A stretch of 64,000 nucleotides of DNA from Armatimonadota bacterium (GCA_050942735.1 JBMNNW010000004.1:29632-93631); one strand, 5' to 3'; shown: positions 23,535 through 60,774, counted from the stretch's first letter. Numbers and translations are program-made. Notes: generated from the letters alone by a model not told the origin.

Positions 23535-23536
23535 TC

Positions 23537-25735: not shown

Positions 25736-25854
25736 GCGCTGGATTATACGCCAATGAGGGCTCGCGCACAAAGTCGAGACCTCAGCCGGGGTGCGACCAG
25801 ATCATGTGGGTGACGACGGCGACCTTCCCCGCCCTCACAGACACCATTCGGGCA

Positions 25855-27349: not shown

Positions 27350-29185
27350 TCACACGTCTGGGAACATCATGCTGTCCGCGAACACGAGTTGGAAGCGCGG
27401 GTTGGCCATCAGTTCGACATGCTCCGCATCGCGCGCCAACTCCGCCGCCCGCTTCCTCTCGTCGAGTGACAGAAGCGCCGCCAGCGCGCCGGCACCCGCG
27501 GCGTTGCCGATCCCCCGTATCTGCTCGAGCCGCACATCCGGCAGCAGGCCCATTCGGAGCGCGCTGCGGCGGTCGATGTAGTTCCCAAATGCCCCGGCGA
27601 GCAGCACTTCCTCGATCTCATCGCAGCGTATGCCGGTCTCCGCGCAGAGCAGCTCGATCGCCGCCCGCACGGCCCCCTTCGCCAGCTGCACCTCGCGCAG
27701 ATCTTTCTGTGTGAAGGTGATCTCGCCGTTGCCGACGCCGCCCCCTTCGACAAGCACGAACTCCCGGTCCGGCCCCTCGCCGCGCAGCCGGGCGCGCAGC
27801 CCGGGTGACAGCGTCTCAGCGACCTCCTCCGTCGCGAGGCGGCCGGAACTGTCGGCGACTCCGCTGTCAAGCAGTGCCGCGACCGTGTCGAAGATCCCGG
27901 AGCCGCAGATGCCGTTGGGCCGCGCGCTGCCGATCGTTGCGTAGCCGATGCTGCCGTTGCGCAGCCAGACGCGCTCGATGGCCCCATCGGCCGCGCGCAC
28001 GCCGTGGCGGATCTCGCCGCCCTCAAAGGCCGGGCCCGCCGCACAGGAGGTCGTGAGCAGCCGCCCGTTGGCAGAGAGCATTACTTCGCCGTTGGTTCCG
28101 ATGTCGATCGCCAGCGTCGGGTGGTCTCGCTCCGCCATACGCGACATCAGCAGCACACCGACCGTGTCGGCGCCCACGAAGCCGGCTATGACCGGCAGGC
28201 AGTATACGTTGCCCGCGCGGTTGATTGCAAGCCCCGCCTCCTCCGCCGACAACTCGATCGGCTCACGCGTGACCGGCACGTAGGGCGCGTGTGCGAGATG
28301 TCGCGGATCCAGGCCGAGGAAGAGATGGTGCATGCAGGTGTTGCCGACGACCGCGACCTCGTAGATGTCACGCCGCCGCACTCCCGCTTCACCCGTCGCC
28401 TCCGCCAGCAGCCGGTTGATAAGGTCCACGATCAGCCGTCGGAGGTCCTCAAGTCCGGTCGCAGCACTCTGCACATGCTCGATGCGCGAGATGAGATCGT
28501 GCCCGTAGCGCGCCTGAGGGTTCAACTCCGAGGCCGTCGCGACCACCTCGCCGGTGCGCAGATCGACCAGGTAGGCCACGACGGTCGTGGTCCCGATGTC
28601 GATCGCAGCCCCGAGGCAGCAGGAGTCAGCGTTCGGCGGCCGAATCGCGGACACGACATCGCCCACGCGAACAACCCCGACGTGGAAGCCGTTTCCCCGC
28701 AGCACGGTCGGGAGCTGCGCGAGAGCGTCTCGGTGGACCTTCAACTCGCCGGGGGGCACGCCGAGCGCATCCGCCACGCGTTCGAAGTCGCTGCGCTGAT
28801 CGGCCAGACTCGGCTCGGCAACCTCGACCGCCCGCGCGATCACGTTGGGGCTGAGGACGATCTCCTCGCGCGCGTCGTCGGAGAGTATCTTGCCCGTGAC
28901 GGTGCGGGAGTCGCCCGGGAGGATAATCTGCGCGTCCTCAATCAGCCTCGCCTCACAGGCAAGCCGCACGCCGTTGCGCAGTTCCTCGCCGGTCAGAAGA
29001 TCGGTCTCCGCCTGCGTCGGAGGGGCGCAGCCCTTCTCGGCGATCACGCGGCAACGCCCGCAGCGCCCGCGCCCACCGCAGGGGGCGTTGATCGAGACCC
29101 CCATCGATTCGGCGGCCGCGAGGATCGTGGTTTCCCGTTCGACCTCCCCCATCTCGCCGCCCGGTTTGAAGCTGACCGTGATCAT
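27350..29185 (-). CDS. RACo-type reductive activator of corrinoid protein (2Fe-2S ferredoxin + ASKHA ATPase)
   Basis: N-terminal plant-type ferredoxin Cys pattern (PCGGRGRCGRCRV...C). C-terminal ASKHA/acetate-sugar-kinase fold region. 611 aa, the size and architecture of RACo/RamA-like activases. Confidence 0.8.
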   Translation of the reverse strand: MITVSFKPGGEMGEVERETTILAAAESMGVSINAPCGGRGRCGRCRVIAEKGCAPPTQAETDLLTGEELRNGVRLACEARLIEDAQIILPGDSRTVTGKILSDDAREEIVLSPNVIARAVEVAEPSLADQRSDFERVADALGVPPGELKVHRDALAQLPTVLRGNGFHVGVVRVGDVVSAIRPPNADSCCLGAAIDIGTTTVVAYLVDLRTGEVVATASELNPQARYGHDLISRIEHVQSAATGLEDLRRLIVDLINRLLAEATGEAGVRRRDIYEVAVVGNTCMHHLFLGLDPRHLAHAPYVPVTREPIELSAEEAGLAINRAGNVYCLPVIAGFVGADTVGVLLMSRMAERDHPTLAIDIGTNGEVMLSANGRLLTTSCAAGPAFEGGEIRHGVRAADGAIERVWLRNGSIGYATIGSARPNGICGSGIFDTVAALLDSGVADSSGRLATEEVAETLSPGLRARLRGEGPDREFVLVEGGGVGNGEITFTQKDLREVQLAKGAVRAAIELLCAETGIRCDEIEEVLLAGAFGNYIDRRSALRMGLLPDVRLEQIRGIGNAAGAGALAALLSLDERKRAAELARDAEHVELMANPRFQLVFADSMMFPDV

Positions 29186-41625: not shown

Positions 41626-42999
41626 TCACTCACCGGCGAACTGCGGCAGCAGGTCCTTCGACGCCGCCAGCAGCTCGTCTACCATCGCCTCGGTACGGTC
41701 GGGCGGGATTGACATCTCGTCCACCAGGCAGGCCTGCACCACCAGGTCGCGGTCGCCCGTGACCGCCGCGTCCGCCACCAGTTCCTGCCAGACGATCCGC
41801 TTCTCCAGCATCCCTTTGAGCACCGGCGGGGCCTCGCCCATCTGCAGCCCTCTCACTCCGCCGCAGTCCGTCACGCCTTCCACCTCCAGCAGGGCGTGCG
41901 CCGGGAGGTTCGGGACACATCCGCCGTTCGGGATGTTCACCACGCAGGTCGTCCGCCTGCCCGTGGCGATCGACGCGACGATCTCCCCCACGCCCTCCCC
42001 CATCAGCGTGTCCGAGGGGCCATCAGGCAGGCTCACATCGCCAACCAGTTCGCGGTACTCGGCCATGAACGCCCTCCGCACCTCGGGCGCGGGCTCCTCG
42101 GCAGACGGCATCGCGGTCGGCAGATCATCCCACAGCTTCTGTGCGTCCGCGGCCATGTCGTAGGGCAACTCCGCCGGCGCATCGGTCTGCGTCAGCCACG
42201 GATAGAACTCGATCACATGGTCGTCCTCCGGGTAGACGATCTGATAGCCGTAGGCGAGCGAGAGATCGCGCGACATCCCCCGCCCCACCGGGGCCTCGAC
42301 CGCACGCAGCCGCCGCATCAACTCGGGATAGACGTCGTGCCCGCGATGCAGCAGGCGCGTAAACCAGTAGTAGTGGTTCGTGCCGACCCACGTGGCGCTG
42401 AGTTCGCGCGGATCGACGTGCAAGAGCTCCGCGGCGTAGCGGATCCCCGCCTGGACGCCATGGCAGATGCCGATGGAATTGATCCGCGTGTGCTTCACCA
42501 TCGCGCGGCAGAGCACGGCCATCGGGTTGGAGTGGTTCAGGAGGATCGCGTCCGGGCAGCGCCGCTCCATCTCGCGGCATATCTCCATATACGCAGGCAC
42601 AGCGCGCAGCGCCATCATCATCCCCGCCGGCCCGCAGGTGTCGCCGACGATCTGCTGGATGCCGTACTTCGCCGGGATGCGGATATCCGCGGCGTGATAG
42701 GCCGACTGGTAGACGCGCGAGCCGATGGCCGCTCCGGAGCCGCCGATCGACGAGAGCGCGAAATCCGAGCCGTCAACGGCATCGGCGAGATCATCGGTGG
42801 CCCGTACACGGCATCCGGTTCCGGCCTGTCGGGCCAGCGCCTCGTGAACCGCGCTCATCGCCTCGACCTTCTCACGGTCGATGTCATAGAGCACGATCTC
42901 CGATCCCGCGAGGTCCGGGTTCACCAGCAGGTCGGGCACCGCGCGCCTGAAGTAGAGACTGCCCCCACCGAGACATACGATCTTCTTCGATTCTGCCAC
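41626..42999 (-). CDS. Glycoside hydrolase family 4 (NAD+/Mn2+-dependent glycosidase)
   Basis: N-terminal KIVCLGGGS Rossmann motif. Conserved NHSNP and CHG motifs. 457 aa. Confidence 0.85.
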   Translation of the reverse strand: MAESKKIVCLGGGSLYFRRAVPDLLVNPDLAGSEIVLYDIDREKVEAMSAVHEALARQAGTGCRVRATDDLADAVDGSDFALSSIGGSGAAIGSRVYQSAYHAADIRIPAKYGIQQIVGDTCGPAGMMMALRAVPAYMEICREMERRCPDAILLNHSNPMAVLCRAMVKHTRINSIGICHGVQAGIRYAAELLHVDPRELSATWVGTNHYYWFTRLLHRGHDVYPELMRRLRAVEAPVGRGMSRDLSLAYGYQIVYPEDDHVIEFYPWLTQTDAPAELPYDMAADAQKLWDDLPTAMPSAEEPAPEVRRAFMAEYRELVGDVSLPDGPSDTLMGEGVGEIVASIATGRRTTCVVNIPNGGCVPNLPAHALLEVEGVTDCGGVRGLQMGEAPPVLKGMLEKRIVWQELVADAAVTGDRDLVVQACLVDEMSIPPDRTEAMVDELLAASKDLLPQFAGE

Positions 43000-44573: not shown

Positions 44574-44730
44574 GCGGCATCCTCTCGGTGATGACCCGTG
44601 GTGACCGGCGGTCGGTGTGCCCGCTCGTGTCATTCCTCGCGCGGAGGGGCTTCCCTCCCGCGGCTGCAGGTTCGCCATCTCCGGCGGCGAAGATACTCGG
44701 GCGACTGATGCCGCGCCATGGAGCAGCTCC

Positions 44731-46248
44731 ATGCACATTCCGCGCCTCCGACAGATCAGCCTGAGGCACCTCACCTGGGTACTGCTCATCTACCTGGGGA
44801 TCGTTGCCGCCGCATGGCCGCGGCGCACGTACGACATCTGGTGGCACATCGCGACCGGCAAGTGGATTCTCCAGAACGGACAGGTTCCGCGCGTTGATCC
44901 GTTCACATGGACGCGCGAGGGCACCCCGTGGACCGCCCACGGCTGGGCGTGGGACGTACCGATGTTCCTCTTCTACTCAAACTGGGGCCACGACGGCTTG
45001 ATGGTCCTGCGGATGCTGGTGGCGGCCGTCGCCTGCGGCCTGCTGGCCTGGCTACTTTTCCGCCGAGGCGCGGCCCCGATGGCGGCGATGACGGCCGGGA
45101 CGCTGGCGATCCTGGCCGCACGGCCGCTCTTCAACGACCGACCGCAGGCTCTGACACTGGTCTTCTTCGTCGCCATGCTCTGCCTGATCGAGCAGGCGGA
45201 ACGAGGCAAGCAGCGGTGGCTGCTGATTGGCGCGCCGCTGCTGATGATCCCGTGGGTGAACTTCCACGGCGGTTTCATCTACGGGCCGGCGCTCATCGGG
45301 CTCTACGCACTGTGCAAGGTACCTGACTGGTACAGGCAGTGGCGCGGGGACGAGGTGCTTTCCCCCTGTCCGGGCTTCGTTCTCGGCGCCATTGCGCTCG
45401 CCGCCGTCGCGTGTCTCGCCAACCCCAACGGCGTTAGTGGCGCCGTGTACCCGCTGACGTATATCTCAGGCGGACACTCCCAGGCGGTCATCTCGGAGTA
45501 CAACTCGCCGGACTTCTCCTCCGCGACCTTCCGTCTCCTCGGCTATCTGATCGTCGTGACGACGGCGGTCTTCGCGGCCTCCGGTCGGCGAAGCGGCGTG
45601 TGGGAGTTGGCGCTGACGGCGATTTTCCTCTACACTGCTCTGCAGTGGCAGCGAAATACCGCTCTTTTCTCCTTCGCCATCGCACCGGTGCTGGCCATGC
45701 ATCTCACCGAAGCGATGGCCCGGTGGAACCTCTCGGGGCAGTCTGAGGAGAGTGGCTCCCGCCCACCGTCTTTCCTGTACCCGGCGATCATCCTCGCCCT
45801 CGCCGTCTCGACGGCTTTCGCAATCCCGTCGGCCGGGGCGCGCGCTGAGGCCGCGTTCAGGGGGGACATGCCCGTCCGATGTGTCGAGTACGTCAAGCAA
45901 AGCGGGCTTCAGGGGCGCGTCTTCAACACGTATCGCTGGGGCGGCTATCTGATCTGGCACCTCTGGCCCGAGCACAAAGTGATGGTGGACGGCCGCGCGG
46001 ATGTGCTCGGCCCGGAGCTGATCTCCGACTGGCGGAGGGCGCATCGCCTCGAGGACGGCTGGCAGGAGGTGCTGGACGACTACGCCGTCGATTGGGCGAT
46101 CATCGCGGCGGATGCGCCGCTGGTGCGCGCCCTCGAGCTTCATCCGGACTGGCGGCTCGTGTGCGAGGAGCCGACAGGAAGTCTCTTCGTCCGGCGGGGC
46201 TCGATCGCAGATCGCACCGCGGACCCCGCGGTAAGCTACGACGACTGA
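44731..46248 (+). CDS. Polytopic membrane protein, GT-C-like putative glycosyltransferase
   Basis: About 12 TM helices. N-terminal loop with conserved acidic and aromatic residues (DIWWHIATGKWILQNGQVPRVDPFTWT). Extracytoplasmic C-terminal domain. Confidence 0.5.
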   Translation: MHIPRLRQISLRHLTWVLLIYLGIVAAAWPRRTYDIWWHIATGKWILQNGQVPRVDPFTWTREGTPWTAHGWAWDVPMFLFYSNWGHDGLMVLRMLVAAVACGLLAWLLFRRGAAPMAAMTAGTLAILAARPLFNDRPQALTLVFFVAMLCLIEQAERGKQRWLLIGAPLLMIPWVNFHGGFIYGPALIGLYALCKVPDWYRQWRGDEVLSPCPGFVLGAIALAAVACLANPNGVSGAVYPLTYISGGHSQAVISEYNSPDFSSATFRLLGYLIVVTTAVFAASGRRSGVWELALTAIFLYTALQWQRNTALFSFAIAPVLAMHLTEAMARWNLSGQSEESGSRPPSFLYPAIILALAVSTAFAIPSAGARAEAAFRGDMPVRCVEYVKQSGLQGRVFNTYRWGGYLIWHLWPEHKVMVDGRADVLGPELISDWRRAHRLEDGWQEVLDDYAVDWAIIAADAPLVRALELHPDWRLVCEEPTGSLFVRRGSIADRTADPAVSYDD

Positions 46249-47538: not shown

Positions 47539-48069
47539 ATGATCCGCGCACTGCATCGAAGACGTGGTTCGGCGGCCGGCGGCGTGATCGTGGTGCTCGT
47601 GTTGGCGCTCGCGGCCGGCGCGCTGTGGTACTTCGTCCTGCGCTCAACGCCGCAAAAGACCGTCGGTGGTTTGCTGGAGGCGGCTCGGGTGGGCGATGAG
47701 CAGATGATGCTCGAATACCTGACACCACAGTCGCGCAGCGAGCCGGGGCTCGTGATCGGGCTGACCCGCAGGCTCGCCGGCGAGCCTGCGGGAGAGCCGC
47801 AGTACTCGATCGGCGAGCCGGTGGTCGGCGAGACGACCGCCACCGTGCCGGTTGAGTTCCCGGTCGGCAACACCATCGCGACGCTTACAGGGATGAGGAC
47901 GCTCACAGTGCCCTACGTCCTGCACCGAGAGGGACAGACGTGGCTGGTGGATACCGCCGCGACGCAGGAGGAGATCGGCCGAAGGCTCACAGACAGCGCC
48001 CTGGAGATGCTCAGGCGCTTCATCATGTCCGGAGGGCCGATCGGCTCGCCGGACGGAAGACGGATCTGA
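47539..48069 (+). CDS. Hypothetical single-pass membrane protein
   Basis: Basic cytoplasmic N-terminus, one TM (VIVVLVLALAAGALWYFVL) and a roughly 130-aa periplasmic domain. Confidence 0.45.
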   Translation: MIRALHRRRGSAAGGVIVVLVLALAAGALWYFVLRSTPQKTVGGLLEAARVGDEQMMLEYLTPQSRSEPGLVIGLTRRLAGEPAGEPQYSIGEPVVGETTATVPVEFPVGNTIATLTGMRTLTVPYVLHREGQTWLVDTAATQEEIGRRLTDSALEMLRRFIMSGGPIGSPDGRRI

Positions 48070-48141: not shown

Positions 48142-49203
48142 ATGATGAATGACCAGCAGGAAGCAGGAGATGAGGGCACACAAGGAGACGAGTTGCTCGC
48201 CGAACCCGCTGAGGCGTCGGAGGGCGACAGCGTATCCCCCGACGGGGACCGCCCGGCAGGCGCGCAGCGCCGCCCGGCGACCATCGCGGTGACGGCACTT
48301 GTGGTACTTGCGATCATCGCAATCGCGATCTGGGCGCTACCGATGATATTGCGTCCGGACGCGCGGACGCTGCTTGAGGAGGCTGTCGCCGGTTACCACG
48401 ATGCGCAGGAGATTCACGTCGAGAGCAACATGTCCTACGAGATGTCGATGGGCGACCAGCGACAGGCGATGGAGTTGCCGACCACCGCGTGGTTCAGTCG
48501 GCCGAACCGGATGTTCTTTGAGAGCGGGGACGAGACACAGCGGAGCAGGGCTGTGAGCGACGGCGAATACCTCTTTCTCGAGGTCGGGATGTTCAACGGC
48601 GTCATCAAGCTGCCCGCACCGGCGTCCTTCGACGAGATGCCGCTGGAGAATCTGAGCATGAGCGGGGGTGCGGGGATAGAGAGCATGAAGCTCCCCGACA
48701 TCGCCTCAATCCTCTCAGGCGCATTCGATGTCGGGGGCCTCGCGAGTGTTGAGCACGGGCTCGACGAGGGCGCGGAGTGGCTCAGGTCCCTCGATGCCCC
48801 CGCCGGGACGTGGGCGCTGACGGTGCGATCGGAGGCAGGTCCGTCGGTGGCGGTGTGGATCGACAGGACACAGAGGGTCGTGCGCAAGTACGCCGCGCAG
48901 ATCGACTTCGACACGATGATCGCGGCCAACCCCGAGATGGAGCAGTATCTCGAGCAGATGCCATCCGAGCAGCAGGAGAGCTTCCGACAGATGCTGACGC
49001 GCTTCGAGACCGACGTGCACACGGTTGAGCTTGGGAGACAGCCGCCCGAGGGGACTTTCGCCTATGAGCCCGCCGAGGGGGCTGAGGTCGTCGAGGCAGA
49101 TACTCTCGAGGAGGGCATTCAGAAGCTCCTCGCATCGGTGATGGAGCGCCGGCCCCCGATGGATGCCCCGCTGCCACCCGAGGACGCGCCGGCCGACGAG
49201 TAG
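48142..49203 (+). CDS. Hypothetical single-pass membrane protein with acidic N-terminus and LolA/RseB-like periplasmic domain (speculative)
   Basis: GGGAG RBS. Acidic cytoplasmic head, TM (IAVTALVVLAIIAIAIWAL), a roughly 280-aa periplasmic region and an acidic Pro-rich tail. Confidence 0.5.
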   Translation: MMNDQQEAGDEGTQGDELLAEPAEASEGDSVSPDGDRPAGAQRRPATIAVTALVVLAIIAIAIWALPMILRPDARTLLEEAVAGYHDAQEIHVESNMSYEMSMGDQRQAMELPTTAWFSRPNRMFFESGDETQRSRAVSDGEYLFLEVGMFNGVIKLPAPASFDEMPLENLSMSGGAGIESMKLPDIASILSGAFDVGGLASVEHGLDEGAEWLRSLDAPAGTWALTVRSEAGPSVAVWIDRTQRVVRKYAAQIDFDTMIAANPEMEQYLEQMPSEQQESFRQMLTRFETDVHTVELGRQPPEGTFAYEPAEGAEVVEADTLEEGIQKLLASVMERRPPMDAPLPPEDAPADE

Positions 49204-49288: not shown

Positions 49289-49720
49289 TCAGGTCGGTGT
49301 CACGCCCTTCTTCAGGATGATGTTCCCGTACTTCGCGGTCTCGCCCGTCATCACGACCGCGAAAGCGCCACGGGCGCGGTCGTAGAACGCGAAGCGGTCG
49401 ATCCTGCGGATCTCGGGCGCTTCGGGCGCGTGGCGGTCCACGGCCTCTCGGTAGGCCGCCTCCACCGCCGGGTCGAGCGATTCGCTCTCGACCGCCGCCA
49501 TCATCACCAGCGGATCGCCAACGTAGGCGTCCAGTTCGAAGAGCGGGAGGATCGCGTCGAGCAGGTCGGCGATGCGTAGGCCGTCTGCGCGCACGACGCG
49601 CGCGTTCATCGTCTCCCCCGGAAAGTGCGCGTCGGCGAGCACGATCTCATCCCCGTGCCCCATGCGCGCAAGCACCGCCAGCAGCTCCGGACTGATCAGC
49701 GGCGAGATTCCCTTGAGCAT
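49289..49720 (-). CDS. fucU: RbsD/FucU family sugar mutarotase (L-fucose mutarotase-like)
   Basis: [34 protein letters not shown] matches the FucU/RbsD N-terminus. 143 aa with GGGAGG RBS. The longer 299-aa ORF is a low-complexity extension over the sulfatase C-terminus in another frame. Confidence 0.8.
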
Positions 49721-49733
49721 CGTGAGACCTCCC

Positions 49734-51164
49734 TTAACCGTGGTGCACCGAGTCGGGCCCGAGATCGAAGAAGCGCAGCGACCAGTAGTGCGAGTTCGCC
49801 AGCACCTCGTCGCCGGTCTCGTGCACATGGCGCCAGATCCCGCGCAGCATCTCATCCTTGCGCTGCGCGTACGCCGGGTCGTCGGCCACGTTGCGCATCT
49901 CGTGAGGATCCACCTCAAGGTCATACATCTCATCGAAGTCGTAGGCGTTGAAGATGTACTTGATCCCGTCACGCCAGAGGATGCGCTGGGTGAAGAAGTA
50001 CCGCTGACCGTGGAACTCAGCGTAGGCCTCATCATCCCAGTCATCCCGGTGCGGCTCGTCGAGCAGCGGTCTGAGCGAGCGGAAGTGCGCCTCATCGAAG
50101 GGGTCGCAGCCTGCAAGCTCCAGCACGGTCGGGCAGAGGTCGCCGATGGAGACCACGCGGTCGCTGTCCTGCCCGTTGCCCGCGGCATTGGGGTCCCGGA
50201 CGATCAGCGGGATGTTGTAGACTTCCTCGTAGGGCGTGATGCCCTTCGTCAGCAGCCGGTGCGCTCCCATCATGTCGCCGTGGTCGGTGACGTAGACGAT
50301 CACGGTGTTCTCCCACTGGCCGGACGCCACGAGCGCGTCGAGCACCCGCCCTACGTGATCGTCCAGCATTGAGCACACTCCGAGGTAGCAGGCCGTCATC
50401 TGCCGGAACTCGTCCTCCGTCAGTGCTTCGAAGACCCGCTGCATGCGCTTGAGAACGTTCGGCTTGCCCGCGAGGTCATCGTCGAAGCTCGCGGGCAGCT
50501 CGATCTCTGCCGGGTCGTAGCGCTCGTAGTACTCAGCCGGGCAGACGTAGGCGTCATGCGGCTCGGGAGTGGAGATGGCCATGCACCACGGCTCATCCCC
50601 TCCCGCGAAGTGCTCGTCGAAGTACTGCAGCGCGCGTTCGTAGATGCAGCCGGGCCGCTGCGCGCCTCCCGGCTCGTCGATCACCGCGTAAAGCTCGCGC
50701 TCTTCGTACGCGCGCCCGCCGAGACTCTTCGACAGCAGGCGCGGAGCGGGGCCGTCGTGGCCACGCTCGCTCCGCCACTGCGCGAGGTCGCGGCACTCGT
50801 CGAAGTGCCTCCAGCCGAACTGCGACAGGTCCTGCGTGCGCTCGACATGCCACTTGCCGAAGTACGCGTTGTGATAGCCGCCTGCGGCGAGCGACTCGGA
50901 CCAGGTGGGGAGGTCGGCGCGGAAGTTCGCACGCGCCTCATCGGACGCGTGGGTGCAATCGTACATCCCGTGCCCGTGCACGTGCAGCCCGGTGAACAGC
51001 GACGCGCGCGTCGGTGAGCAGATGGCGTTGACGGTGTACGCGCGGTTGAAGCGCACGCCCTCGCCGATGATACGGTCGATGTTCGGCGTGTGGCAGATGT
51101 CGGTGTTGACGGTCCGCGCCTGCTGCTGGTCGGTCATCAGAAAGAGGAAGTTCGGCTGACTCAT
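49734..51164 (-). CDS. Sulfatase (formylglycine-dependent arylsulfatase family)
   Basis: Sulfatase signature [11 protein letters not shown] (C-x-P-x-R). Metal-binding LFLMTDQQ N-terminus. 476 aa. Confidence 0.9.
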
Positions 51165-51317
51165 GGCGATCTCTCCCGGTCAATGGCTGGCGGCACCGGC
51201 ACGGTTCGCCATCGGCGGTTCCATCGCCTGCTGCAAGGTCTCCCGAGAAACGAGGCGAAACACGCTCCACGGATACTGCCGTTCGGGACTGTCGGCCCGA
51301 AGGTGAGGGGATCGTCG

Positions 51318-52667
51318 ATGATCCATGAAACGCGTGTTCAGAGGCTCTCAGACGCCCCGGTGCGGGAGCGGGAGTTCGTGTTGTACTGGATGCAGGCGTC
51401 GCAGCGGGCCCGCTTCAACCACGCGCTGGAGTACGCCTCCCGGCAGGCCGACGAGCTGAAGGTCCCGCTCGTCGTCGGCTTCGGCCTCGACGCGACCTAC
51501 CCGGAGGCCAACGCCCGCCACTTCGCCTTCATGCTGCAGGGCCTGCAGGAGACGGCCCTGGCGCTGCGGGAGCGCGGGGTCACCCTCGCGGTGCGCAAGG
51601 CACCACCCGACGACGCAGCGCTCGAGTTCTCCCACCGAGCCTGCATGGTCGTCTGCGACCGTGGCTACCTCCGCCATCAGAAGAGGTGGCGCGAGCGAGT
51701 TGCCGATGAGGCAGACTGCCGCGTGGTGCAGGTGGAGACGGACGTGGTGGTGCCGGTCGAGGTCGCCTCCGACAGGGAGGAGTACGCCGCGAGGACGATC
51801 CGGCCGAAGCTGCACAGGCATATTGATGATTACCTCGTTGACCTGGCGGAGAGCGGTCCTGAGCGCGACTCGCTGGACCTGGGCTTCAACTCCGCCGACG
51901 TGAGCGACCCGGCGGCCGCCCTCGATCGCCTCGACGTGGACCGCTCGGTCCAGCCGGTCAGTGAGTACACCGGCGGGACCTCCGAGGCAGAGCGACTGCT
52001 CGATGAGTTCATCGCCAGTCGCCTGGCGGATTATGACGAGCGGCGCAATGAGCCGGCGGACAACTGGGTCTCGCACATGAGTCCCTACCTGCACTTCGGG
52101 CAGATATCCCCGGTCTACGTAGCCTCGCAGGTGGCGGGCCACGAGGGCGATGAGGCCTACCTCGAGGAGCTGATCGTGCGCCGCGAGCTTGCGATCAACT
52201 TCTGTCACTTCAACCCGCGCTACGACTCCATCGATGCCCTCCCCGACTGGGCGCTGACGACACTCGCCGAGCACTCCAGCGACGGGCGCCCCTATGTGTA
52301 CACCGCGCAGCAGTTCGAGCGCGCCGAAACGCACGATGAGTACTGGAACGCGGCGCAGATGGAGATGGTGCTGACCGGGAAGATGCACAATTACATGCGC
52401 ATGTACTGGGGCAAGAAGATCCTCGAGTGGACCGAAGACGCCTCCGACGCGCACGCGATTATCGCATGGCTCAACAACAGGTACGAGCTTGACGGCCGCG
52501 ATCCGGTCTCGTGGGGGAACTTCGCGTGGATCTTCGGCAAGCACGACCGCCCGTGGCAGGAGCGGGAGATCGTCGGGAAGGTGCGCTGGCTGGCCGCCTC
52601 CGGCCTTGAGCGGAAGTTCGATATCGACGCGTACGTCGAGAAGGTCGAGCGTCGCCGTCAGCCCTGA
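51318..52667 (+). CDS. phr: Class II CPD deoxyribodipyrimidine photolyase
   Basis: FVLYWMQASQRARFNHAL N-terminal motif of class II photolyases. FAD-binding C-terminal domain. Start at MIHETRV with AGGTGAGGGG RBS. Confidence 0.85.
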   Translation: MIHETRVQRLSDAPVREREFVLYWMQASQRARFNHALEYASRQADELKVPLVVGFGLDATYPEANARHFAFMLQGLQETALALRERGVTLAVRKAPPDDAALEFSHRACMVVCDRGYLRHQKRWRERVADEADCRVVQVETDVVVPVEVASDREEYAARTIRPKLHRHIDDYLVDLAESGPERDSLDLGFNSADVSDPAAALDRLDVDRSVQPVSEYTGGTSEAERLLDEFIASRLADYDERRNEPADNWVSHMSPYLHFGQISPVYVASQVAGHEGDEAYLEELIVRRELAINFCHFNPRYDSIDALPDWALTTLAEHSSDGRPYVYTAQQFERAETHDEYWNAAQMEMVLTGKMHNYMRMYWGKKILEWTEDASDAHAIIAWLNNRYELDGRDPVSWGNFAWIFGKHDRPWQEREIVGKVRWLAASGLERKFDIDAYVEKVERRRQP

Positions 52668-52791
52668 GGCGCGCAGCCGCCCTCGGCAGGTCTTCGCTCC
52701 GTCCGCGGCGAACGGTTCCTCACCTGCGCCTGAAATCACGTGCCGCCGCCGGGACGGGCGGCGCGTTTCGGTTCGGAAGGCCTGATCGCTG

Positions 52792-55700
52792 ATGCGCCCC
52801 GGAAAGCCCGCCCTCATGCTCCTCGCCGCCGCATTGCTGTGCGCGGCAGCGGCGCTGGCCCAGCCCGCCCTGGTACCACGCGTCACCGATCACACGCCCG
52901 CACCGCCCGCCGAAGGGCTGCCGCCCGCACTCGCCGATCTTGCGCTGCCACAGGGCGCGCTCGACCGGCTTGCTGAAGTCCACTCCGGCACTGAGGGCGT
53001 GTTATCCGTGCAGGTCGCGTGGCTGTCGGGCGACCGCTATCTCTGGCGCGTCGAACTGGACGAGCCACTGGAGGGCCGGCAGACCCTCAGCCTCTACGTG
53101 GACGCCGACTCAGACCCGGCGACCGGGCGCGAGGATGCCCGAGGCGCGGACATCCTCGCCCAGGCGGGTCCGGAGCAGCCTCGCCTCAGCGAGTGGATGG
53201 CCGACGGCGCGCTCAGCGACGACCGTGGCCTCCGCACCGCGATCGACGGGACAACGCTCTGGATGACGATCGATCACCCGATGGCGATCGCGGACGGCGA
53301 GGCGCGCTTCGTCTTCTGGATCACATCGCCCCTCGGCGGCGCCGAGGCCGTCCAGGCCTCCATCCCGGCGCAGGGCCCACGGCCTGTGCGTTTTCATGAT
53401 GGCTCGGAGGTGGGCGGCGACCTCGCCCTGCGGCTCGAACCCGCTGACGCATCCGCCACGCGCGTCACCGTCACGAACACGGGAGACACTGAGCGGTGGA
53501 TCGATCTGAGCCTTCCCCACGCGCTCCAGCTCAATGCCCCTGTCCGTTGGTTCGACGGCTTCAACTTCACCCCGCATGACCTGGGCGACGCCGCGCTTGA
53601 GTATCACGGCATCTCCGCGGTCCTCCCGCTCACCTGCGCGTGGGATGGAGAAAGCGGCGTCGCGATGGCGTTCGACCCGATGGACTGGTACACCGAGGCG
53701 CACTTCGGCCTTCGCCAGACGAACACCGGCCAGCAGATGCGGATCAGCTCACGCCTCGCCCTGATGCCCGGCGAGAACCACACCTTCACCGTGCACGTCT
53801 TCAGCTATGACGGAAGCCTGGGGTGGCGAGGGGCCTTTGAAAGGTACTGGCGGATGTTCCCGGAGGTCTTCGAGCGCGCGCGCGACATCGATCAGCGCTT
53901 TCATCAGGCCTCCGGCGGCGGCCTCTACCGCAACGCGCTGGATCCATCCGACGAAGCTTTCGCGTCTGATCTGCTCCGCCGGATGCGCGGGCACTGGGAA
54001 TGGGGCTACGCGCCCGCACCGCGTCCCGGCGAGTGGGCCGTCACCGAGAAGTCCATCGGCGAATGGACACGCAGCGCCGGTGAGGTTAAGAGGTCCCTCG
54101 ATGAGGAGGGACTGCGCGAGGCACAGACGCGCATCAGGCGGTGGGTGCGCGAGACCGCCACGACCTCGCCGACGTCGCGGTCGCGTACTACATGCACCTC
54201 AAGAACGTTGAGAAGGGGCTTATGGAGCAGCACTGGTCTGACAGCTACTTCCAGGACCGGCAGATCGAGTACCTCGGGTATTACCAGCGAACGCCGTGCT
54301 GGTTCGCCTACCCGTGGGCCAACAGCTACGGAGACTACCTCGCCGATGCGATCCCGTCGGTCGCTGAGCGCTTCCAGCCCGCAGGAGTCGCGTTTGACTC
54401 GGTCTTCGGCTTCATCGCGCACTGGGGCCCGAGCGCCGATCGCTCGCCGGGCACGACCTTCGAGAACGGCCGCGCCTTCGTGGGTGAGGGCATCGGCTTC
54501 GCGAAACAGATGGACGTTGTGCGGGAGCAGTACACCGGCGGCTTCCGCACAGCGATGGTTACGAACCTCAAGCTCCCGACGCTCTCGGCCGACGCCGTCC
54601 GCACCGACACGGCCCTGCTGGAGTTCCACCCGATGGGCAACCCGCTCTACCGCGAGCGCATCCTGCGTCTGAGAATGCTCTCTGGCGAGGTCATGTTCAA
54701 CTGGTGGCACAACTACGATCCGGGCCTCTACCGCTGGATCCCGTGGGATAGTCTGACCGCGGAGCAGACGCTCGACGCATTCCGCCGTCTGCGCGATGAC
54801 ATCCTCATCCACTCGCTCTACTACGGCGGCGCCCCCAACGGCCGATTCGCGGTGGGCATCCCGAAGGTCATGCGCGCCCTCCCGATGCTCATCGAGACCG
54901 CCGACCTCGGCTGGCGACCGGTCATCGCCGCCAGGCCCGCGACCAGCGACCTGCTCATCAGCCGCTACGGCGAGGGCCCAACGCTCGCGCTGGGCGTGGG
55001 CAACCAGGGCTACCACGCGGTCGAGGACCGCGTCATCATCGACCGCGCGCAGGCCACCGGCGGCGGCGACGCGGTGCTGATGGAGTGGTCGGGCGCCCGC
55101 ACCGTCACCGACCTCGGGGAGACGCTCGCGCTCAACGTCGGCGTCCCGCATCGCGACATACGCGCCTTCCGCACGGTGATGCAGTTGCCGGCGGGCGTCG
55201 CTGAACAGGCGGTCGCCTCCGCCGAGTTGCGTGACCACGAGCCTTCGAGCGTGACGATGGTGCTCGAATGTCCGCAGGCAGCGGAGGTCCCCGTAACCGT
55301 CTGGCTGCCCGCTGGAGCCACGGAGCCGACCTTCCAGCCCGCGGGCTGTGCCACCGCGCTCAGCCGCGCCGCCGACGGCATGCTGAGGGCCAGGCTGTCG
55401 CTGCGCGAGGGCGCGAACACCATCGTCGTCTCCTGGCGGCCACGCGTCGCGCTGATGGGCGACCGCGACGCGCTGCTGGACTACCGGTTCGTCGCTGACG
55501 GCGCGCCGCACTGCAACATCATCGCTGCGGGCGACACCGCGGACCTCGCATTCCGCGTGCAGGAGTATTTCCGCGAGTATTACCGCTGGGCGCTCGACGA
55601 GCCGCAGACGGTGAAGCTGCCGATCGTTTCGGCGAATCAGGCACCTGACGGCCGACGTGTGATCATCGGACTGCTTGACGACTTCCCCGCCGACCTCAGC

Positions 55701-55991
55701 ATGGCCATCGAGGAAGACGAGGCGTACTTCGGCGCGACGGGCGAGGTCGTTTACGCGACCGCACGAACGCCGGAGATGCTCGCACGCGCGGTCAACGGGC
55801 TGCTCTCCACCCTGGATGAGCGCTACGAGTGGTGGGGGCCCTACTACCCGACACAGAGTTTCTTCCGCGGAGACCCGGGCAACTCGCCGGAGGCGATCCG
55901 GCAGGCGGAGATGGCGGGGAAGTACCTCACCGGCGACGACACCGGTTCGCTGCGCGAGATCATCGAACTGCCGGACCTGATCGAGTGGTGA
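52792..55991 (+). pseudogene. Large (about 1060 aa) secreted protein of unknown function, disrupted by a -1 frameshift near 54105-54160
   Basis: Signal peptide MRPGKPALMLLAAALLCAAAALAQP. The protein-like reading frame switches from frame 1 to frame 0 at about 54145. The frame-1 continuation is TSR-rich low-complexity. Confidence 0.6.
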
Positions 55992-56007
55992 CCGACGGAG
56001 GCTTATC

Positions 56008-59000
56008 ATGAAGATGCGAACCGCGATTGCGCTCGTGCTGGGCGCGCTGATTGCCATGACCGCCACATACGCACAGAACGGGACCGCACAACCGACAGAG
56101 AACCTCTTCGCGAATCCCTCATTCGAGGAGGGATTCGCCGAGCGCGGTGACCTGAGAATCCCCGACGGCTGGACGCTCTACGCCGGCACCGGCGTTGGCA
56201 TGGCGCTCGAGCCGACCGATGATGCGCACGAGGGTGAGACCGCGCTGATTGTCCGCGACGGCGACCCGAACGCGGAGATCGGCATTCAGCAGACGATCGA
56301 GGCCGAGGGCGGCATCGCCTATGAGGCCTCGGCGATGGTGAAGGCGCTCAAGCCCGGCGGCGGGGCGGGCGCGTACATTCAGCTTCGCTTCCTTCCGTCG
56401 AACGAGTTTGAGCAGGTCAGTCTGGGCAGCGCGAATGAGGCGGCCTTCCGCAGGGTCTCCGTGGTCGGCCTGGCTCCTGAGGACACCACGACCGTCCGCG
56501 TGTACTACTACACCCACGCGGGTCCGGTGCCGGAGTTCATCATCGACGCGGTGAGGCTGGTCGGTGGCGTGGAGCCGCCCCCTCCCCCGCCCCCGCCTCC
56601 CCCGCCGCTGGACCCTCCCGTGTACGACACGCTCAAGGATCTTCACCTGCAGACCGAACTCGTCGGTGACGGTGAGGCGCGGGCTGCGATCATCTCGCCC
56701 GGGCGCTACACCGAGCAGGCCGGGCAGATCGCGGCCGCGATCGAGCGCATCACCGGCGTGCGCCCGGAGATCGTGGCCGATGACGATGCGCGGGCGGCCG
56801 TGCCGGACGATGGCGAGCACCTCGCCGGCAGCTTCATAGTGCTGGGCAACCGCTCAACCAACGCGATGCTCGAGCAGTTGTACAACCGTTTCTTCACGCT
56901 GCTTGACCTGCGTTACCCCGGCGAGGGCGGTCATGTCGTCCGCACCTGCCACAACCCGTTCGGCGGCGGCCACAACCTCATCCTCGTCGGTGGCAGTGAT
57001 GACGCGGGCGTCGCCGCGGCCGCCGAGACGCTCATCGCGAGGCTCGAGGAGGCGGGCGGCGCGCAGGGAGCCCTCTCCGTGGGCTGGATCCGGGAGATCG
57101 CGCTCGGCGACGACGTCGAGTTCTCGCACGATCCTGAGGAGATCCTCCACTGGGACGCCTCAGCGGGCTACCGCTCCATCGGGTACTTCGGCGGGAACTC
57201 GATCTCCAAGCACATGGCCGCGTACTACATGACCGGCGACGAGTACCACGCCCGCGAGTTCCTGCGGCTGGCTTTCCCGGACGAGCAGGCGAAACGGGAT
57301 ATCACCCGCGTCGATGGCGAGCGCATCGAGAACAAGGACGATCCGCTCGCAGGACCCTACCACTACAACGCGCACATGATGATCCTCTTCTGGGACCTCA
57401 TCGAGGAGGACCCGTTCTTCAGCGACGAGGACCGCCTGCGCATCACCAACGCCTTCGCGCGGCATCTGCTGCATGAGTGGCGCGAGGGAAGCGCCCCGTA
57501 CGCGCTGCAGCGCCCCGCGAATGCCGTCGGCAGTCGCCACGGTCAGTACTCAGCACTCGCTCTGTACTGCCTGTCACGCTACTTCGCGAAGGATTACAGC
57601 GACCCGGTCTGGCGGCAGGGCCTGCTGGGCTCGCAGATGGCGTTTGCGCCGCTGGAGGAGCACGGCTGGGTCTCGGGCGAGTCGGACAATCTCTTCTGGT
57701 ACAACACCGGCCACGCCCCGATCCTGCGCTTCATGCTGCTGTCGGGCTGGCGCGGTCCGCTGGAGAGCGGCGTCCTCGACGAGCTTCTGCGCGGCCAGGA
57801 GATCCTCGCCACGGGCAAGTCGGAGGACTGGGACCTGCGCTCTGCCTCGATCACGTTCCTGCACCGCGCGGCCTATCTCAAACAGGACGGCCGCTGGCTG
57901 GAGTACCTGCGCCGCACGGGCGTGAACACCGATCCGCCGAGGGTCGGGCAGTCGTTCTGGCCCGAGGAGCACCTGCAGCCGGAGCTGCCGATGGACATGG
58001 TCGGGCACTGGAGCATCCACCCGCTGCCGGAGCCGATGTGGGCGAACCGCGGGAGCGGGCTGCCGTTGGAGCATTCGTTCCAGTTCGGCAGCTTCCGCTC
58101 GGCCCCCGATGCGACCGGCGACTTCATCCTGCTCGACGGCTTCAACGGCGCGTCGCGCAACCCCTACCACGCCTTCGCGATACTCGAACTGCGGCTCGGC
58201 GGCCACACGCTGCTGAAGGGCTACCGCAACCAGGTGCTCACGCGCCTCGACGGGATGGTCGAGCCGCGTGTTGCGATGGACGGGGCGCTGCGGCACCGTG
58301 ACGTGATCGGCAGGGTCGCCGCCGCCGTCGGCGAGGTACCCGCCGCCGCCTACTGTAACTGGCGCCGGACGCTCGCTCAGCGGGTCGGAGAGTACGCGCT
58401 GGTGGTCGATGAGCTGACCATGACCGAGAGCAGCGAGAACATCCAGGTGCAGACGCTCTGGGAAGCGCCGAGTGGTTCGTGGGATGACTCGCGCAACTCC
58501 ATCGTCGTCACCGACACGCCCGGCGCGCACACACCGGTCGGCTGGCGGAGCATACTCGCGCTGGAAAGTCCCTACACAAGCCACCCCGCCGGTGATGAGC
58601 ATATCGTCAGACTCGCCAGCCACGGCACGCTGCTGCTGCGCGCGACAGAGCCGGGCGAGTGGCTTGAGATGCAGTTCGCACTCGATGAACCGCTCGAGGG
58701 TGAGTTCCACGCCGACCTTCTCAGATACACCGACCGCGGCGTCGTCCGAATCCTGCTCGACGGCGAGGAGGCCGTTGAACGCTACGACTCGTGGGCCGCG
58801 ACCGCCGACCCCGCGCGCGTCGAACTCGGCCACCATCGCCTCGACGCGGGAGAGCACACGCTTCGTGTCGAGGTCGTCGAGCGCGGGCGGGGCGGCGAGC
58901 GCTCCAACATCGGACTGATCGGCCTCAGCATCAGGCCCGATGAGGCGGATGATGCGCCGGTCGAGGAACTGCGCCGTGAGATCGTCTACTCCGATCCCGT

Positions 59001-60774
59001 GCAGACCCTCCGCGAGGGTAGCGTCTTCACGCTCGAATGGACCGGCTCAGCCGTTGAGGGCGAGACACTCGCGTTCTTCTCGGTCATCGGCTCCAGCGTC
59101 AGCGGCGCGGACGAGCAGCTCGCCAGCCTGCGCCTGAGCGACAACGCGGCCGTGCTCGGACTGCCGCAGCCGGCCGTCGCCGTCTCGGGCGAGTACCAGG
59201 GCACCGATGCGGAGCTGGCGATCATCGCGGAGGACCATCTCTACGCACGCGGTGCGACAGCCGTCGCCGCCGACCACCCACTGCTCAGCGCCGACCGGCC
59301 TGTCACGCTCGACTGGGACTTCGAGAGCGGAACGCTCGCTGTCATCGCCGATGCCAACACCCGCCTGGCGCTACGCATCGCGGACGGCGAGGGGCTCGCG
59401 CTCAACGGGCAGCCAATCTCCGCCGAACGCGAAGGCGACCTTCTCGCCGTCGAGATCCCCGCGGGCGAACACAGCCTCTCGGCGCTGACTCCATCTGAGG
59501 CCGCGCTCGGCGGCCTCGGCGAGTGGCTGGGCGGGCGGCAGTCCGCGGCGGCGCGGATCCGCGCCGAGGCCGAGGCCATCGACCCGCCAGGCGCGCTGCC
59601 CGAGGTGCCCGAGCTTGCGCGGGTGCTCTCTGCAGACCTCGACCGGTCGATCGCACACACGATGCTGATCCCCGATGGCGCAGGCGGGCAGCTTATCGCC
59701 ACCGCCGGCGGCGAGCAGATCACCCTGCTGCGCACCGACGGGAGCGAGCGCGCGATCATGGAGACAGACGGGCCGATCCGCGTTATCCACTGGTGGGACG
59801 ACCATGAGCTGCTGATCGCAGGCTGCACCGACGAGAAGGTCATCGCGTTCAACCGCGATGGTGAGCGGCAGTGGGTCTACGTCTCGGAGATGCATCCGGA
59901 TGTGTTCCGCGCCGCGAAGGACTACTGGTTCAAGTCCGCCTATCCGGGCATCTACGGCCTGCACAGCGGGGAGTTCATCGGCGGCGAAAGCCAGCTCTTC
60001 GTCGGCAGCGCCTGCACGCTGGAGATACTCGACGCGCGGGGTCAGCTCCTCGAACATCTCGCGGTCTTCTGGGGCAACGGCTGGAAGTTTGAGCTGCTGG
60101 ACCGCGACGACGGCTCCCGCGACCTGCTGATCGCCCGATGGCGCAACGGCACCGACCAGCTCTCGATCGTCAACAGCGACACGCTCGCGGTGACGCGCGG
60201 CTTCTACGGCGTCCCCGGCGGGCACACGATGGTCGGTGGGTGGACGGCGCAGAACCGCACGGGGATTGAGCTCGCGGACGTCAACGGCGACGGTTCGCAG
60301 GAACTCGTCAGCGTCACCAACGGCGTCTGGAACCGCGTGACCGTCTTTAACGACCGGGGCTCACCGATGCACAACGCGCAGTTCGGCCCGGGGCCGAGCA
60401 GCGAACCCTACTCCTCGATGCGGGATCTCGTGGTCGCCGACCTGACCGGCGATGGCATGATGGAGATCGTCACTGCGACCGCAAGCGGCCTGGTCGTCTG
60501 CTTCGACCACGAACTGAACCGTCAGTGGGCCCGGGCCCTGCCGTCCGCTGCGACCGTCATGATGGCCGCGCCAGCCGGCGAAGGAACGGCAGTGCTGGTT
60601 GCGTGCGATGACGGCACCGTCGCGCTGCTCGATGCCTCGGGGGCGGTGGTGCGCACCGCCGAGATCGACGGGCGCCCGGTGCGGCACGGGATGTCGCTGC
60701 TGGAGACCGACGACGGCCCGATCGCCGTGATCGGCGTCGCCGCCGGCGGCGTCGCGGGGCTCGCTCTTCAGTGA
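56008..60774 (+). CDS. Giant secreted multidomain protein: CBM4/9-like N-terminal domain, poly-Pro linker, large central domain, C-terminal FG-GAP/VCBS-like beta-propeller repeats
   Basis: Signal peptide MKMRTAIALVLGALIAMTATYA. NLFANPSFEEGF...GW carbohydrate-binding-module-like start. P11 linker. Repeats of DVNGDGSQELVS / DLTGDGMMEIV near C-terminus. 1588 aa. Confidence 0.8.
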   Translation: MKMRTAIALVLGALIAMTATYAQNGTAQPTENLFANPSFEEGFAERGDLRIPDGWTLYAGTGVGMALEPTDDAHEGETALIVRDGDPNAEIGIQQTIEAEGGIAYEASAMVKALKPGGGAGAYIQLRFLPSNEFEQVSLGSANEAAFRRVSVVGLAPEDTTTVRVYYYTHAGPVPEFIIDAVRLVGGVEPPPPPPPPPPPLDPPVYDTLKDLHLQTELVGDGEARAAIISPGRYTEQAGQIAAAIERITGVRPEIVADDDARAAVPDDGEHLAGSFIVLGNRSTNAMLEQLYNRFFTLLDLRYPGEGGHVVRTCHNPFGGGHNLILVGGSDDAGVAAAAETLIARLEEAGGAQGALSVGWIREIALGDDVEFSHDPEEILHWDASAGYRSIGYFGGNSISKHMAAYYMTGDEYHAREFLRLAFPDEQAKRDITRVDGERIENKDDPLAGPYHYNAHMMILFWDLIEEDPFFSDEDRLRITNAFARHLLHEWREGSAPYALQRPANAVGSRHGQYSALALYCLSRYFAKDYSDPVWRQGLLGSQMAFAPLEEHGWVSGESDNLFWYNTGHAPILRFMLLSGWRGPLESGVLDELLRGQEILATGKSEDWDLRSASITFLHRAAYLKQDGRWLEYLRRTGVNTDPPRVGQSFWPEEHLQPELPMDMVGHWSIHPLPEPMWANRGSGLPLEHSFQFGSFRSAPDATGDFILLDGFNGASRNPYHAFAILELRLGGHTLLKGYRNQVLTRLDGMVEPRVAMDGALRHRDVIGRVAAAVGEVPAAAYCNWRRTLAQRVGEYALVVDELTMTESSENIQVQTLWEAPSGSWDDSRNSIVVTDTPGAHTPVGWRSILALESPYTSHPAGDEHIVRLASHGTLLLRATEPGEWLEMQFALDEPLEGEFHADLLRYTDRGVVRILLDGEEAVERYDSWAATADPARVELGHHRLDAGEHTLRVEVVERGRGGERSNIGLIGLSIRPDEADDAPVEELRREIVYSDPVQTLREGSVFTLEWTGSAVEGETLAFFSVIGSSVSGADEQLASLRLSDNAAVLGLPQPAVAVSGEYQGTDAELAIIAEDHLYARGATAVAADHPLLSADRPVTLDWDFESGTLAVIADANTRLALRIADGEGLALNGQPISAEREGDLLAVEIPAGEHSLSALTPSEAALGGLGEWLGGRQSAAARIRAEAEAIDPPGALPEVPELARVLSADLDRSIAHTMLIPDGAGGQLIATAGGEQITLLRTDGSERAIMETDGPIRVIHWWDDHELLIAGCTDEKVIAFNRDGERQWVYVSEMHPDVFRAAKDYWFKSAYPGIYGLHSGEFIGGESQLFVGSACTLEILDARGQLLEHLAVFWGNGWKFELLDRDDGSRDLLIARWRNGTDQLSIVNSDTLAVTRGFYGVPGGHTMVGGWTAQNRTGIELADVNGDGSQELVSVTNGVWNRVTVFNDRGSPMHNAQFGPGPSSEPYSSMRDLVVADLTGDGMMEIVTATASGLVVCFDHELNRQWARALPSAATVMMAAPAGEGTAVLVACDDGTVALLDASGAVVRTAEIDGRPVRHGMSLLETDDGPIAVIGVAAGGVAGLALQ

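Follow-up and report, generated by a model that had tools for sequence, protein, structure and literature searches.

A secreted 1588-residue protein of an Armatimonadota bacterium with a predicted toroid and sandwich core of the polysaccharide-lyase kind, and its sulfatase and fucose mutarotase neighbours

A stretch of 64,000 nucleotides from an Armatimonadota bacterium (GCA_050942735.1, JBMNNW010000004.1:29632-93631; hereafter the window) contains, between positions 49289 and 60774, genes for a sulfatase, for the L-fucose mutarotase FucU and for two very large secreted proteins, one of about 1065 residues that is split by a frameshift and one of 1588 residues. An earlier note on this DNA had read these genes, together with a glycoside hydrolase of family 4 (GH4), as a candidate sulfated-fucan locus, and had proposed that the central domains of the two large proteins may be novel polysaccharide-active or adhesin domains. 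The locus therefore raises two questions, namely whether these genes belong together and what the large proteins do. The window has a GC content of 65-69% throughout, its host being a metagenome-assembled genome (MAG) of an Armatimonadota bacterium with 67% GC, and all of the genes proposed in this region are long open reading frames (ORFs) with coding-type codon bias (0.82-0.90 GC at third codon positions). We find three functionally independent units: a sulfatase-FucU bicistron on the minus strand, a class II photolyase, and the pair of secreted-protein genes on the plus strand (Table 1). The larger secreted protein has a core that is predicted to share its fold with uronate-acting polysaccharide lyases.

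The 1588-residue protein is an exact match to a protein of an Armatimonadota MAG at NCBI. Its ORF starts 16 nt after the preceding stop codon, with GGAGG in the spacer, and the signal peptides of both large proteins and the run of 11 prolines at residues 190-200, all described in the earlier note, were borne out. The protein belongs to a family (hereafter the 1580-residue family) of 598 detected members, mostly 1550-1600 residues long and 47-67% identical over their full length, which come from Armatimonadota, Planctomycetota, Kiritimatiellae and Lentisphaeria and are named only as 'hypothetical', 'VCBS' or 'FG-GAP repeat' proteins. Sequence methods detect only the C-terminal propeller and a stretch resembling a carbohydrate-binding module (CBM). 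Neither large protein gained a name from Pfam, at default thresholds or at E <= 10, with whole proteins, single sub-domains or eight orthologous cores as queries, or from NCBIfam and PDB sequence searches. A tblastn search with the core against plasmid sequences returned only noise, and literature searches found neither family of large proteins described. We note one member labelled Thermoguttaceae (Planctomycetota), P0014, which has 1368 residues and is 80% identical to the 1588-residue protein over residues 206-840; this closeness, greater than that of most Armatimonadota members, suggests a recent transfer or mis-binning.

With 102 sequences as input, AlphaFold2 gave a model of residues 196-1200 that has a predicted local distance difference test score (pLDDT) of 93.1 and a predicted template-modelling score of 0.90. 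In this model an α-helical toroid is followed by an antiparallel β-sandwich that packs on it. The structure prediction and Foldseek search, which the earlier note had suggested as a check, gave PL39, PL12 and PL15 polysaccharide lyases (PLs) and dermatan sulfate epimerase as the best matches in the Protein Data Bank (PDB). The top match is the PL39 alginate lyase Dp0100 (E = 7.5e-15, target template-modelling score (TMt) 0.49, 917 aligned columns), followed by PL12 heparinase III, PL15 Atu3025, human dermatan sulfate epimerase 1, PL33 and PL8, with a Foldseek probability of 1.00 to 6jp4, 5jmd, 4mmh and 3a0o. The model shows that the predicted core has the toroid and sandwich architecture of the PL12/15/17/21/39/40 lyase clan and of dermatan sulfate epimerase, and at the level of fold it supports the proposal of a novel polysaccharide-active central domain.

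The modules around this core are less uniform. The earlier note had described a CBM4/9-like head, an assignment that we could not uphold: PF02018 (CBM4/CBM9) gave no match in the 1588-residue protein at E <= 10 and is listed for only six of 120 homologues in precomputed match lists, and the sole match of the head domain is a weak HpiC1-like one (E = 0.003). The CBM-like β-sandwich after the first sandwich matches the xylan-binding MiXBM (7ehg; Foldseek TMt 0.79, profile E = 6.9e-5). It is missing in P0014 and in a subfamily of about 1430 residues, and because of its absence from the latter we regard it as an optional insert. The FG-GAP-like propeller of the earlier note is confirmed; the C-terminal 394 residues scanned alone match FG-GAP_3 at 38.2 bits and designer 'Cake' propellers at E = 9e-7. 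The same segment scores 30.1 bits, against a cutoff of 26.8, with the Beta-prop_CGLA profile (PF25292) of GH150 λ-carrageenase, and many homologues share a precomputed match to this profile. However, only profile positions 32-111 (80 of 316) are matched, at 24.7-30.1 bits, and generic FG-GAP and PQQ propellers match the same stretch. The likeness to GH150, a family for which no solved structure exists (PMC12549532), is confined to the propeller profile and does not extend to the full-length architecture.

Conservation, computed over 93 full-length family members, is highest in the toroid, where 13% of the residues are invariant across four phyla (32 positions, 21 of them polar or aromatic). 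These include Y451, H452, Y453, H456, R510, H511, R524, Y525, D560 and W564. The first sandwich follows with 8% invariant residues (14 positions, 12 polar or aromatic, including N713, R717, Y720, H721, R729 and D748) and holds an invariant N-x3-R-x2-Y-H motif. The propeller has 7% invariant residues, and the CBM-like module and later sandwiches about 2%. The invariant toroid residues (451-456, 510-511 and 560-564) are at the starts of every second helix and should therefore lie on one face of the toroid, as they do in the lyase clan.

The catalytic set of PL39 and PL40 consists of an asparagine neutraliser, a tyrosine acid, an aspartate, a histidine base from the sandwich and a second, metal-binding histidine, and in the PL40 enzyme Uly1040 the set is N245/Y305/D358/H485 (PMC12915356). 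In the 1580-residue family the helix-start clusters are spaced by about 56-58 and then about 50 residues, with a further 265 or so to the sandwich histidine, which is compatible with that set. The residues H452/Y453/H456, R510-H511, Y525, D560 and Y720-H721 are invariant, and by sequence spacing the tyrosine position may correspond to R510-H511. The HxH metal motif of PL39-type enzymes is not conserved; Y-H is found instead, and catalytic equivalence is only putative. As far as the alignment goes, the conserved residues are compatible with a resemblance, in kind and in spacing, to the Asn/Tyr/Asp/His set of PL39 and PL40.

Comparison with known enzymes brings out both likeness and distance. 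Dp0100 (6JP4/6JPN) and the PL12, PL15, PL17, PL21 and PL40 enzymes share with the 1588-residue protein the order of helical toroid and antiparallel β-sandwich domains, and its conserved His, Tyr, Asp and Asn residues, placed where helices begin and within the first sandwich, may correspond to theirs, but the identity is only about 10-12% and there is no profile-level similarity. Beyond the PL39-type lyases, the 1588-residue protein adds an α/β domain before the toroid, the CBM-like insert, two further sandwiches and the C-terminal FG-GAP propeller. Human dermatan sulfate epimerase 1 (6HZN) likewise combines a toroid with two β-sandwiches (E = 3.5e-9, 956 columns, TMt 0.43) and works by lyase-like C5 proton abstraction. 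Unlike the 1588-residue protein it is a eukaryotic Golgi enzyme, with no sequence similarity detected and no propeller or CBM modules seen in the comparison.

In our view, the 1588-residue protein is fairly probably a Sec-exported multimodular enzyme whose core would abstract the C5 proton of an acidic polysaccharide that contains uronate. We infer chemistry of the polysaccharide-lyase type from a fold that matches the lyase clan and a conservation pattern compatible with it, and the substrate and accessory roles are likewise proposals. Once exported by its signal peptide, the protein would present, in order, a β-jelly-roll head, a polyproline linker, an α/β domain, the (α/α) toroid, a β-sandwich, the CBM-like insert, further β-sandwiches and the FG-GAP propeller. 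The acidic polysaccharide may be bound in the cleft between toroid and sandwich, where the conserved His/Tyr set would abstract the C5 proton. The most likely outcome on the model would be β-elimination, and C5 epimerisation would be the main, less likely, alternative. The head, the CBM-like insert and the propeller may provide substrate or cell-surface binding. Several observations weigh against this interpretation. Searches for a sequence link to PL families were all empty, whether with Pfam at E <= 10 on eight orthologous cores (Hepar_II_III, Hepar_II_III_N and Alginate_lyase included), with NCBIfam or with the family profile against the PDB. GH146 and other (α/α)6 hydrolases are among the weaker fold matches. 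Finally, in Armatimonadota the gene keeps company with syntenic housekeeping genes, outside a polysaccharide-utilisation cluster, which is unusual for a catabolic lyase. Most likely the protein stands for a sequence family and a domain architecture that are both new, though the structural kind is known.

The first gene of the pair, described in the earlier note as a frameshifted protein of about 1060 residues, encodes about 1065 residues once a 2-nt 'AC' is removed, and its signal peptide is confirmed. Intact homologues of about 1067 residues (n = 26, the best with 73% identity) are all from Armatimonadota where the organism is named. The orthologues all read WV, eight residues and then VAVAYYMHLKN, whereas the window has eight codons plus 2 nt at this point. 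The insertion-bearing sequence is 100% identical over 5.1-5.3 kb in the Logan assemblies of two runs (L020 and L021; SRR31066034 and SRR31065934). An assembly error is ruled out by the identical insertion in two separate sequencing runs, and because both independent assemblies carry it we take the insertion to be a real feature of the population. Programmed frameshifting at 54160 is likewise ruled out, as there is no slippery heptamer and the orthologues are simply in frame. The gene is thus inactivated in this strain by the 2-nt insertion, apparently recently, since no other lesions are present and both flanks of the insertion keep their codon bias. The downstream 1588-residue gene is intact.

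A profile of 25 close homologues of this protein found 746 cluster representatives at E <= 1e-3, most of them 900-950 residues long and matching profile positions of about 210-1030. The 1065-residue protein has no match in Pfam, NCBIfam or, by phmmer and profile hmmsearch, among PDB sequences, and a 92-sequence profile of the superfamily has no PDB sequence match. Eight distant members show no Pfam domain in the shared core, with only an appended Laminin_G_3 domain in one and a PEP-CTERM motif in another. The model of one homologue, P0121, has a pLDDT of 67.7, with residues 363-640 below 50. Its Foldseek matches (E = 7e-9 to 1e-5, template-modelling score only about 0.2) are GH36 α-galactosidases and a galactosaminidase, GH31, GH101, GH129, and the super-sandwich of YidC or aldose epimerase. 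The conserved centre of the superfamily alternates β and α elements, with D536 invariant and D606 and E611 near-invariant. These top matches, the β/α alternation and the acidic residues may be features shared with GH36/GH31/GH101/GH129-type glycosidases; the low-confidence centre of the model, the low scores and the absence of a sequence-level match set the protein apart from them. That this protein also has a polysaccharide-active domain, as earlier proposed, comes down to a weak GH36/GH31-type resemblance at low model confidence, and we regard a glycoside-hydrolase-like organisation (super-sandwich, barrel and sandwich) as a lead and nothing more. On this lead, the protein would probably be a glycoside-hydrolase-like partner of the 1588-residue protein.

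Two further observations concern the large proteins. The C-terminal region of the 1065-residue protein (55440-55988) and the stretch 56650-57102 of the 1588-residue protein appear to contain alike small α/β domains with the pattern 'F/LVADG..P...I/V...A..A..L..Y/I', which are reminiscent of the N-terminal domains of GH115 and GH20b enzymes; there was also a weak alignment to the S-layer protein domain 9fsa. In L008, a locus from a related MAG, a second, distant paralogue of the 1067-residue superfamily (837 residues; 15408-17942, plus strand; hmmsearch E = 6e-24) is located two genes downstream of the 1586-residue orthologue.

Genes for the 1067- and 1580-residue proteins are adjacent in three related MAGs (L001, L006 and L008). 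L001 and L006 have the photolyase upstream of the two genes, and a rearrangement in L008 has placed them behind MreB. An HMM scan of all the loci examined indicates that the 1067-residue superfamily adjoins the 1580-residue family only in this close clade (the three loci and the window). A 1045-residue protein upstream of the Kiritimatiellae orthologue was considered as a further relative, but hhalign showed no relation. In the window the 1588-residue gene is followed by convergent genes for an RmlA-like nucleotidyltransferase and PdxT. The downstream block conserved in Armatimonadota consists of an NTP-transferase, PdxT, a HAD protein, an FAD-oxidoreductase, MreB, MurA and ATP synthase; it is kept in L005, with a 51%-identical orthologue, where the upstream genes are those of glycolysis. 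The neighbours of the wider 1580-residue family are variable. A protein of 637-639 residues (CBM11/GH39-like in L002, with no Pfam match in L017), GH42 and GH129 are found in L002 and L017, and Pel9A-like and NosD-type β-helix proteins near members in L003 and L019. URO-D-like genes are nearby in L002, L004 and L018, and prepilin-like N_methyl proteins in L004 and L006. These neighbours are compatible with a carbohydrate role and define no conserved partner.

The unit on the minus strand comprises the sulfatase and FucU genes. The sulfatase has both features of an S1 enzyme: a sulfatase domain well above the Pfam threshold (PF00884, E = 4.5e-41, 141.6 bits against a cutoff of 25; SGSH_C, 63 bits) and, in its translation, the formylglycine motif C49-S-P-T-R53-A-S-L-F-T-G (residues 49-59), which conforms to C/S-x-P-x-R followed by xxxLxTG. 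The mutarotase matches PF05025 (E = 2.7e-43) and the L-fucose mutarotase equivalog NF011949 at 225.2 bits against a cutoff of 141, and the D-ribose pyranase model reaches no more than 41.7 bits, well short of its cutoff of 93. Both identities agree with the earlier note. The operon-like, co-directional pairing also stands, and the 4-nt gap given there is corrected to 13 nt; the FucU ATG is at 49720, and the spacer after the TAA stop of the sulfatase contains a GGGAGG Shine-Dalgarno sequence. Both ORFs open at the most upstream possible start codon, which makes a signal peptide impossible and the two proteins cytoplasmic, and both align to their families from residue 2-3.

The closest solved structures to the sulfatase are the BT4656 GlcNAc-6-O-sulfatase (5g2v) and an exo-2S-ι-carrageenan sulfatase (6pt4), both at E = 2.4e-43. 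They share with it the sulfatase fold domains and the CSPTR motif, with a full-length alignment in the case of 6pt4. The window sulfatase differs from these S1 carbohydrate sulfatases in its cytoplasmic location, and the similarity is too low for substrate assignment. Orthologues with 77-82% identity occur in L009-L012. In L011 FucU is directly downstream of the sulfatase; in L010 FucU is followed by a 701-residue GHL6/GH42M-like hydrolase, and a divergent DUF6785/6784 membrane protein is upstream of the sulfatase; in L012 the order is photolyase, DUF6785/6784 protein and sulfatase, without FucU. As a side observation, the DUF6785/6784 protein, sulfatase, FucU and GHL6-like hydrolase look in these relatives like a small conserved sugar-utilisation unit, and a homologue of a window ORF of 353 residues, weakly DUF2092/LolA-like, is found near the sulfatase-FucU unit in L010 and L011. 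The bicistron of the window is a reduced version of a small, separate sugar-utilisation unit, and its place next to the photolyase is incidental. The sulfatase may plausibly desulfate an imported sulfated mono- or oligosaccharide, and FucU may equilibrate the anomers of L-fucose.

It is against this background that the single sulfated-fucan locus has to be judged, in which the sulfatase, FucU, GH4 and the two large proteins would together degrade fucoidan, with the large proteins as depolymerases. Support for it comes from the firm identity of FucU and its operon partnership with the sulfatase, from the carbohydrate-enzyme fold predicted for the 1588-residue protein, and from a sulfatase within 4-6 kb of distant family members in L002 and L019. 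Nevertheless, such a locus would consist of contiguous, co-directional genes with conserved linkage, and here the proximity noted earlier is real but the units are on opposite strands, with the photolyase gene, which the earlier note had omitted, between them. The photolyase (TIGR00591, E = 1.6e-154, with a PF00875 match) is transcribed divergently from the sulfatase, with a spacer of 153 bp between them, and is unrelated to glycan metabolism. Nor is the linkage kept in relatives: the sulfatase and FucU do not stand beside the 1067- and 1580-residue genes in any orthologous locus examined (L001, L005, L006 and L008), and the large proteins were not found in the examined flanks of the sulfatase loci L010, L011 and L012. 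The GH4 gene does exist, but at 6.3 kb from FucU and behind at least five unrelated genes (a nitrilase-family gene, a 543-residue ORF of unknown function, a rhomboid-TPR gene and two further unknown ORFs). Pfam scans covered most of the window ORFs, both in 37.9-62.3 kb and in the rest of the window, and among the ORFs scanned no match to a fucosidase or fucanase (GH29, GH95, GH107, GH141 or GH168) was found. Moreover, the sulfatase and FucU are cytoplasmic, and the lyase clan acts on uronates and not on a fucan backbone. We therefore consider a fucoidan locus very unlikely, the least probable of the explanations discussed here.

Two other explanations concern the role of the 1588-residue protein itself. 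It may have a housekeeping role and remodel the envelope or exopolysaccharide of its own cell, as a uronyl C5-epimerase or a trimming lyase, and not serve nutrient acquisition. That human dermatan sulfate epimerase 1 ranks near the top in the structural comparison would fit such a role, as would the Armatimonadota neighbourhood from NTP-transferase to ATP synthase, kept down to 51% identity, and the unusually high full-length conservation across phyla. The synteny partners are, however, on the opposite strand, and vertical inheritance alone may explain their retention; members from other lineages have catabolic CAZymes as neighbours (GH42, GH129, GH39/CBM11 and β-helix proteins), and polysaccharide-export genes are not adjacent. 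On balance this role seems unlikely, if less so than a non-catalytic one, in which the protein would be a surface adhesin or glycan binder with an inactive lyase-like core. An adhesin would account for the several binding-type modules (head, CBM-like insert and FG-GAP propeller), for the lack of a sequence match to active lyase families, and for canonical Tyr and HxH positions that are not obviously retained. What makes it improbable is that the most conserved part of the protein is the toroid and sandwich core and not the binding modules, with an invariant polar and aromatic pattern typical of an active site. A secreted enzyme of the lyase kind remains the reading that we prefer.

Table 1. 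Features of the region and of related loci. Positions are those of the window unless a locus is named; residue numbers are in parentheses.
Feature	Position	Strand	Remark
L-fucose mutarotase (FucU/RbsD family), 143 residues	49289..49720	-	Second gene of bicistron
Cys-type (formylglycine) S1 sulfatase, 476 residues	49734..51164	-	PF00884 and SGSH_C
Class II CPD (cyclobutane pyrimidine dimer) photolyase, 449 residues	51318..52667	+	TIGR00591, PF00875
Secreted protein of about 1065 residues, split into 52792-54159 (frame 1) and 54162-55991 (frame 3)	52792..55991	+	First gene of pair
2-nt 'AC' insertion causing the frameshift	54160..54161	+	Comparison with orthologues
Secreted multidomain protein, 1588 residues	56008..60774	+	Second gene of pair
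Signal peptide MKMRTAIALVLGALIAMTATYA, followed by QN	56008..56073	+	Translation; least conserved family segment
Head, presumed β-jelly-roll (23-189), and P11 linker (190-200)	56074..56607	+	P11 run; HpiC1-like match, E = 0.003
α/β domain (215-365), like the GH115 N-terminal domain	56650..57102	+	Model; 4zmh and 6nps, E about 1e-8, low global template-modelling score
α-Helical toroid (395-640), putative catalytic domain	57190..57927	+	About 11 helices, pLDDT > 90; Foldseek
First β-sandwich (665-835), predicted to pack on toroid as in lyase clan	58000..58512	+	Model, Foldseek
CBM-like β-sandwich insert (about 840-985), optional module	58525..58962	+	MiXBM 7ehg
Further β-sandwiches (986-1160) and long connecting helix (1164-1190)	58963..59577	+	Model; low conservation
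FG-GAP/PQQ-like β-propeller (1195-1588)	59590..60771	+	FG-GAP_3, Beta-prop_CGLA, 'Cake'
GH4	41626-42999	-	Scan of window ORFs
DUF6785/DUF6784 membrane protein, E = 1e-136	L010 1158-3236; L012 1883-3889	-	Flanks sulfatase
GHL6/GH42M-like hydrolase, 701 residues	L010 5929-8034	+	

The remainder of the window holds housekeeping genes (PriA, MetK, CoaBC, Gmk and alanine racemase) and an envelope-glycan biosynthesis cluster. The latter is a co-directional run on the minus strand (12704-25771) of glycosyltransferases (GTs) of families GT2, GT4 and GT2, a PMT_2-like protein, a B12-binding radical-SAM protein and a YfhO-like membrane protein, and it includes two large ORFs without a Pfam match (17864-20248 and 20245-22239). 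A RACo-type corrinoid activase (27350-29185, minus strand; Fer2 and RACo domains, E = 3e-76) is a few kilobases from the B12-binding radical-SAM gene (22167-23534). Three ORFs on the plus strand (44617-46248, 47539-48069 and 48142-49203) have coding-type codon bias, and their Pfam matches are none or sub-threshold; the ORF of 353 residues mentioned above is one of them.

For annotation, the lesson of this locus is that a sulfatase and FucU beside large secreted proteins should not, in this case, be taken as evidence of a fucoidan locus. In anoxic sediments and digesters, Armatimonadota, Planctomycetota, Kiritimatiellae and Lentisphaeria are known to degrade complex glycans that are acidic or sulfated. 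A more specific proposal, which we put forward only tentatively, is that the 1580-residue family is a previously unrecognised uronate lyase or C5-epimerase with a variant catalytic set (helix starts rich in His, and Y-H where the canonical Tyr and the HxH metal motif would stand), permanently fused to an FG-GAP propeller, and that in Armatimonadota it may be a vertically inherited core gene whose product acts on an acidic surface polysaccharide of the cell itself and not on an imported nutrient. The family has about 600 listed members, none of them functionally named; the upstream partner is part of another superfamily, likewise unnamed, with about 750 cluster representatives. Should the core prove active, the 1580-residue family would constitute a new CAZy-type lyase or epimerase family that sequence-based annotation has missed.

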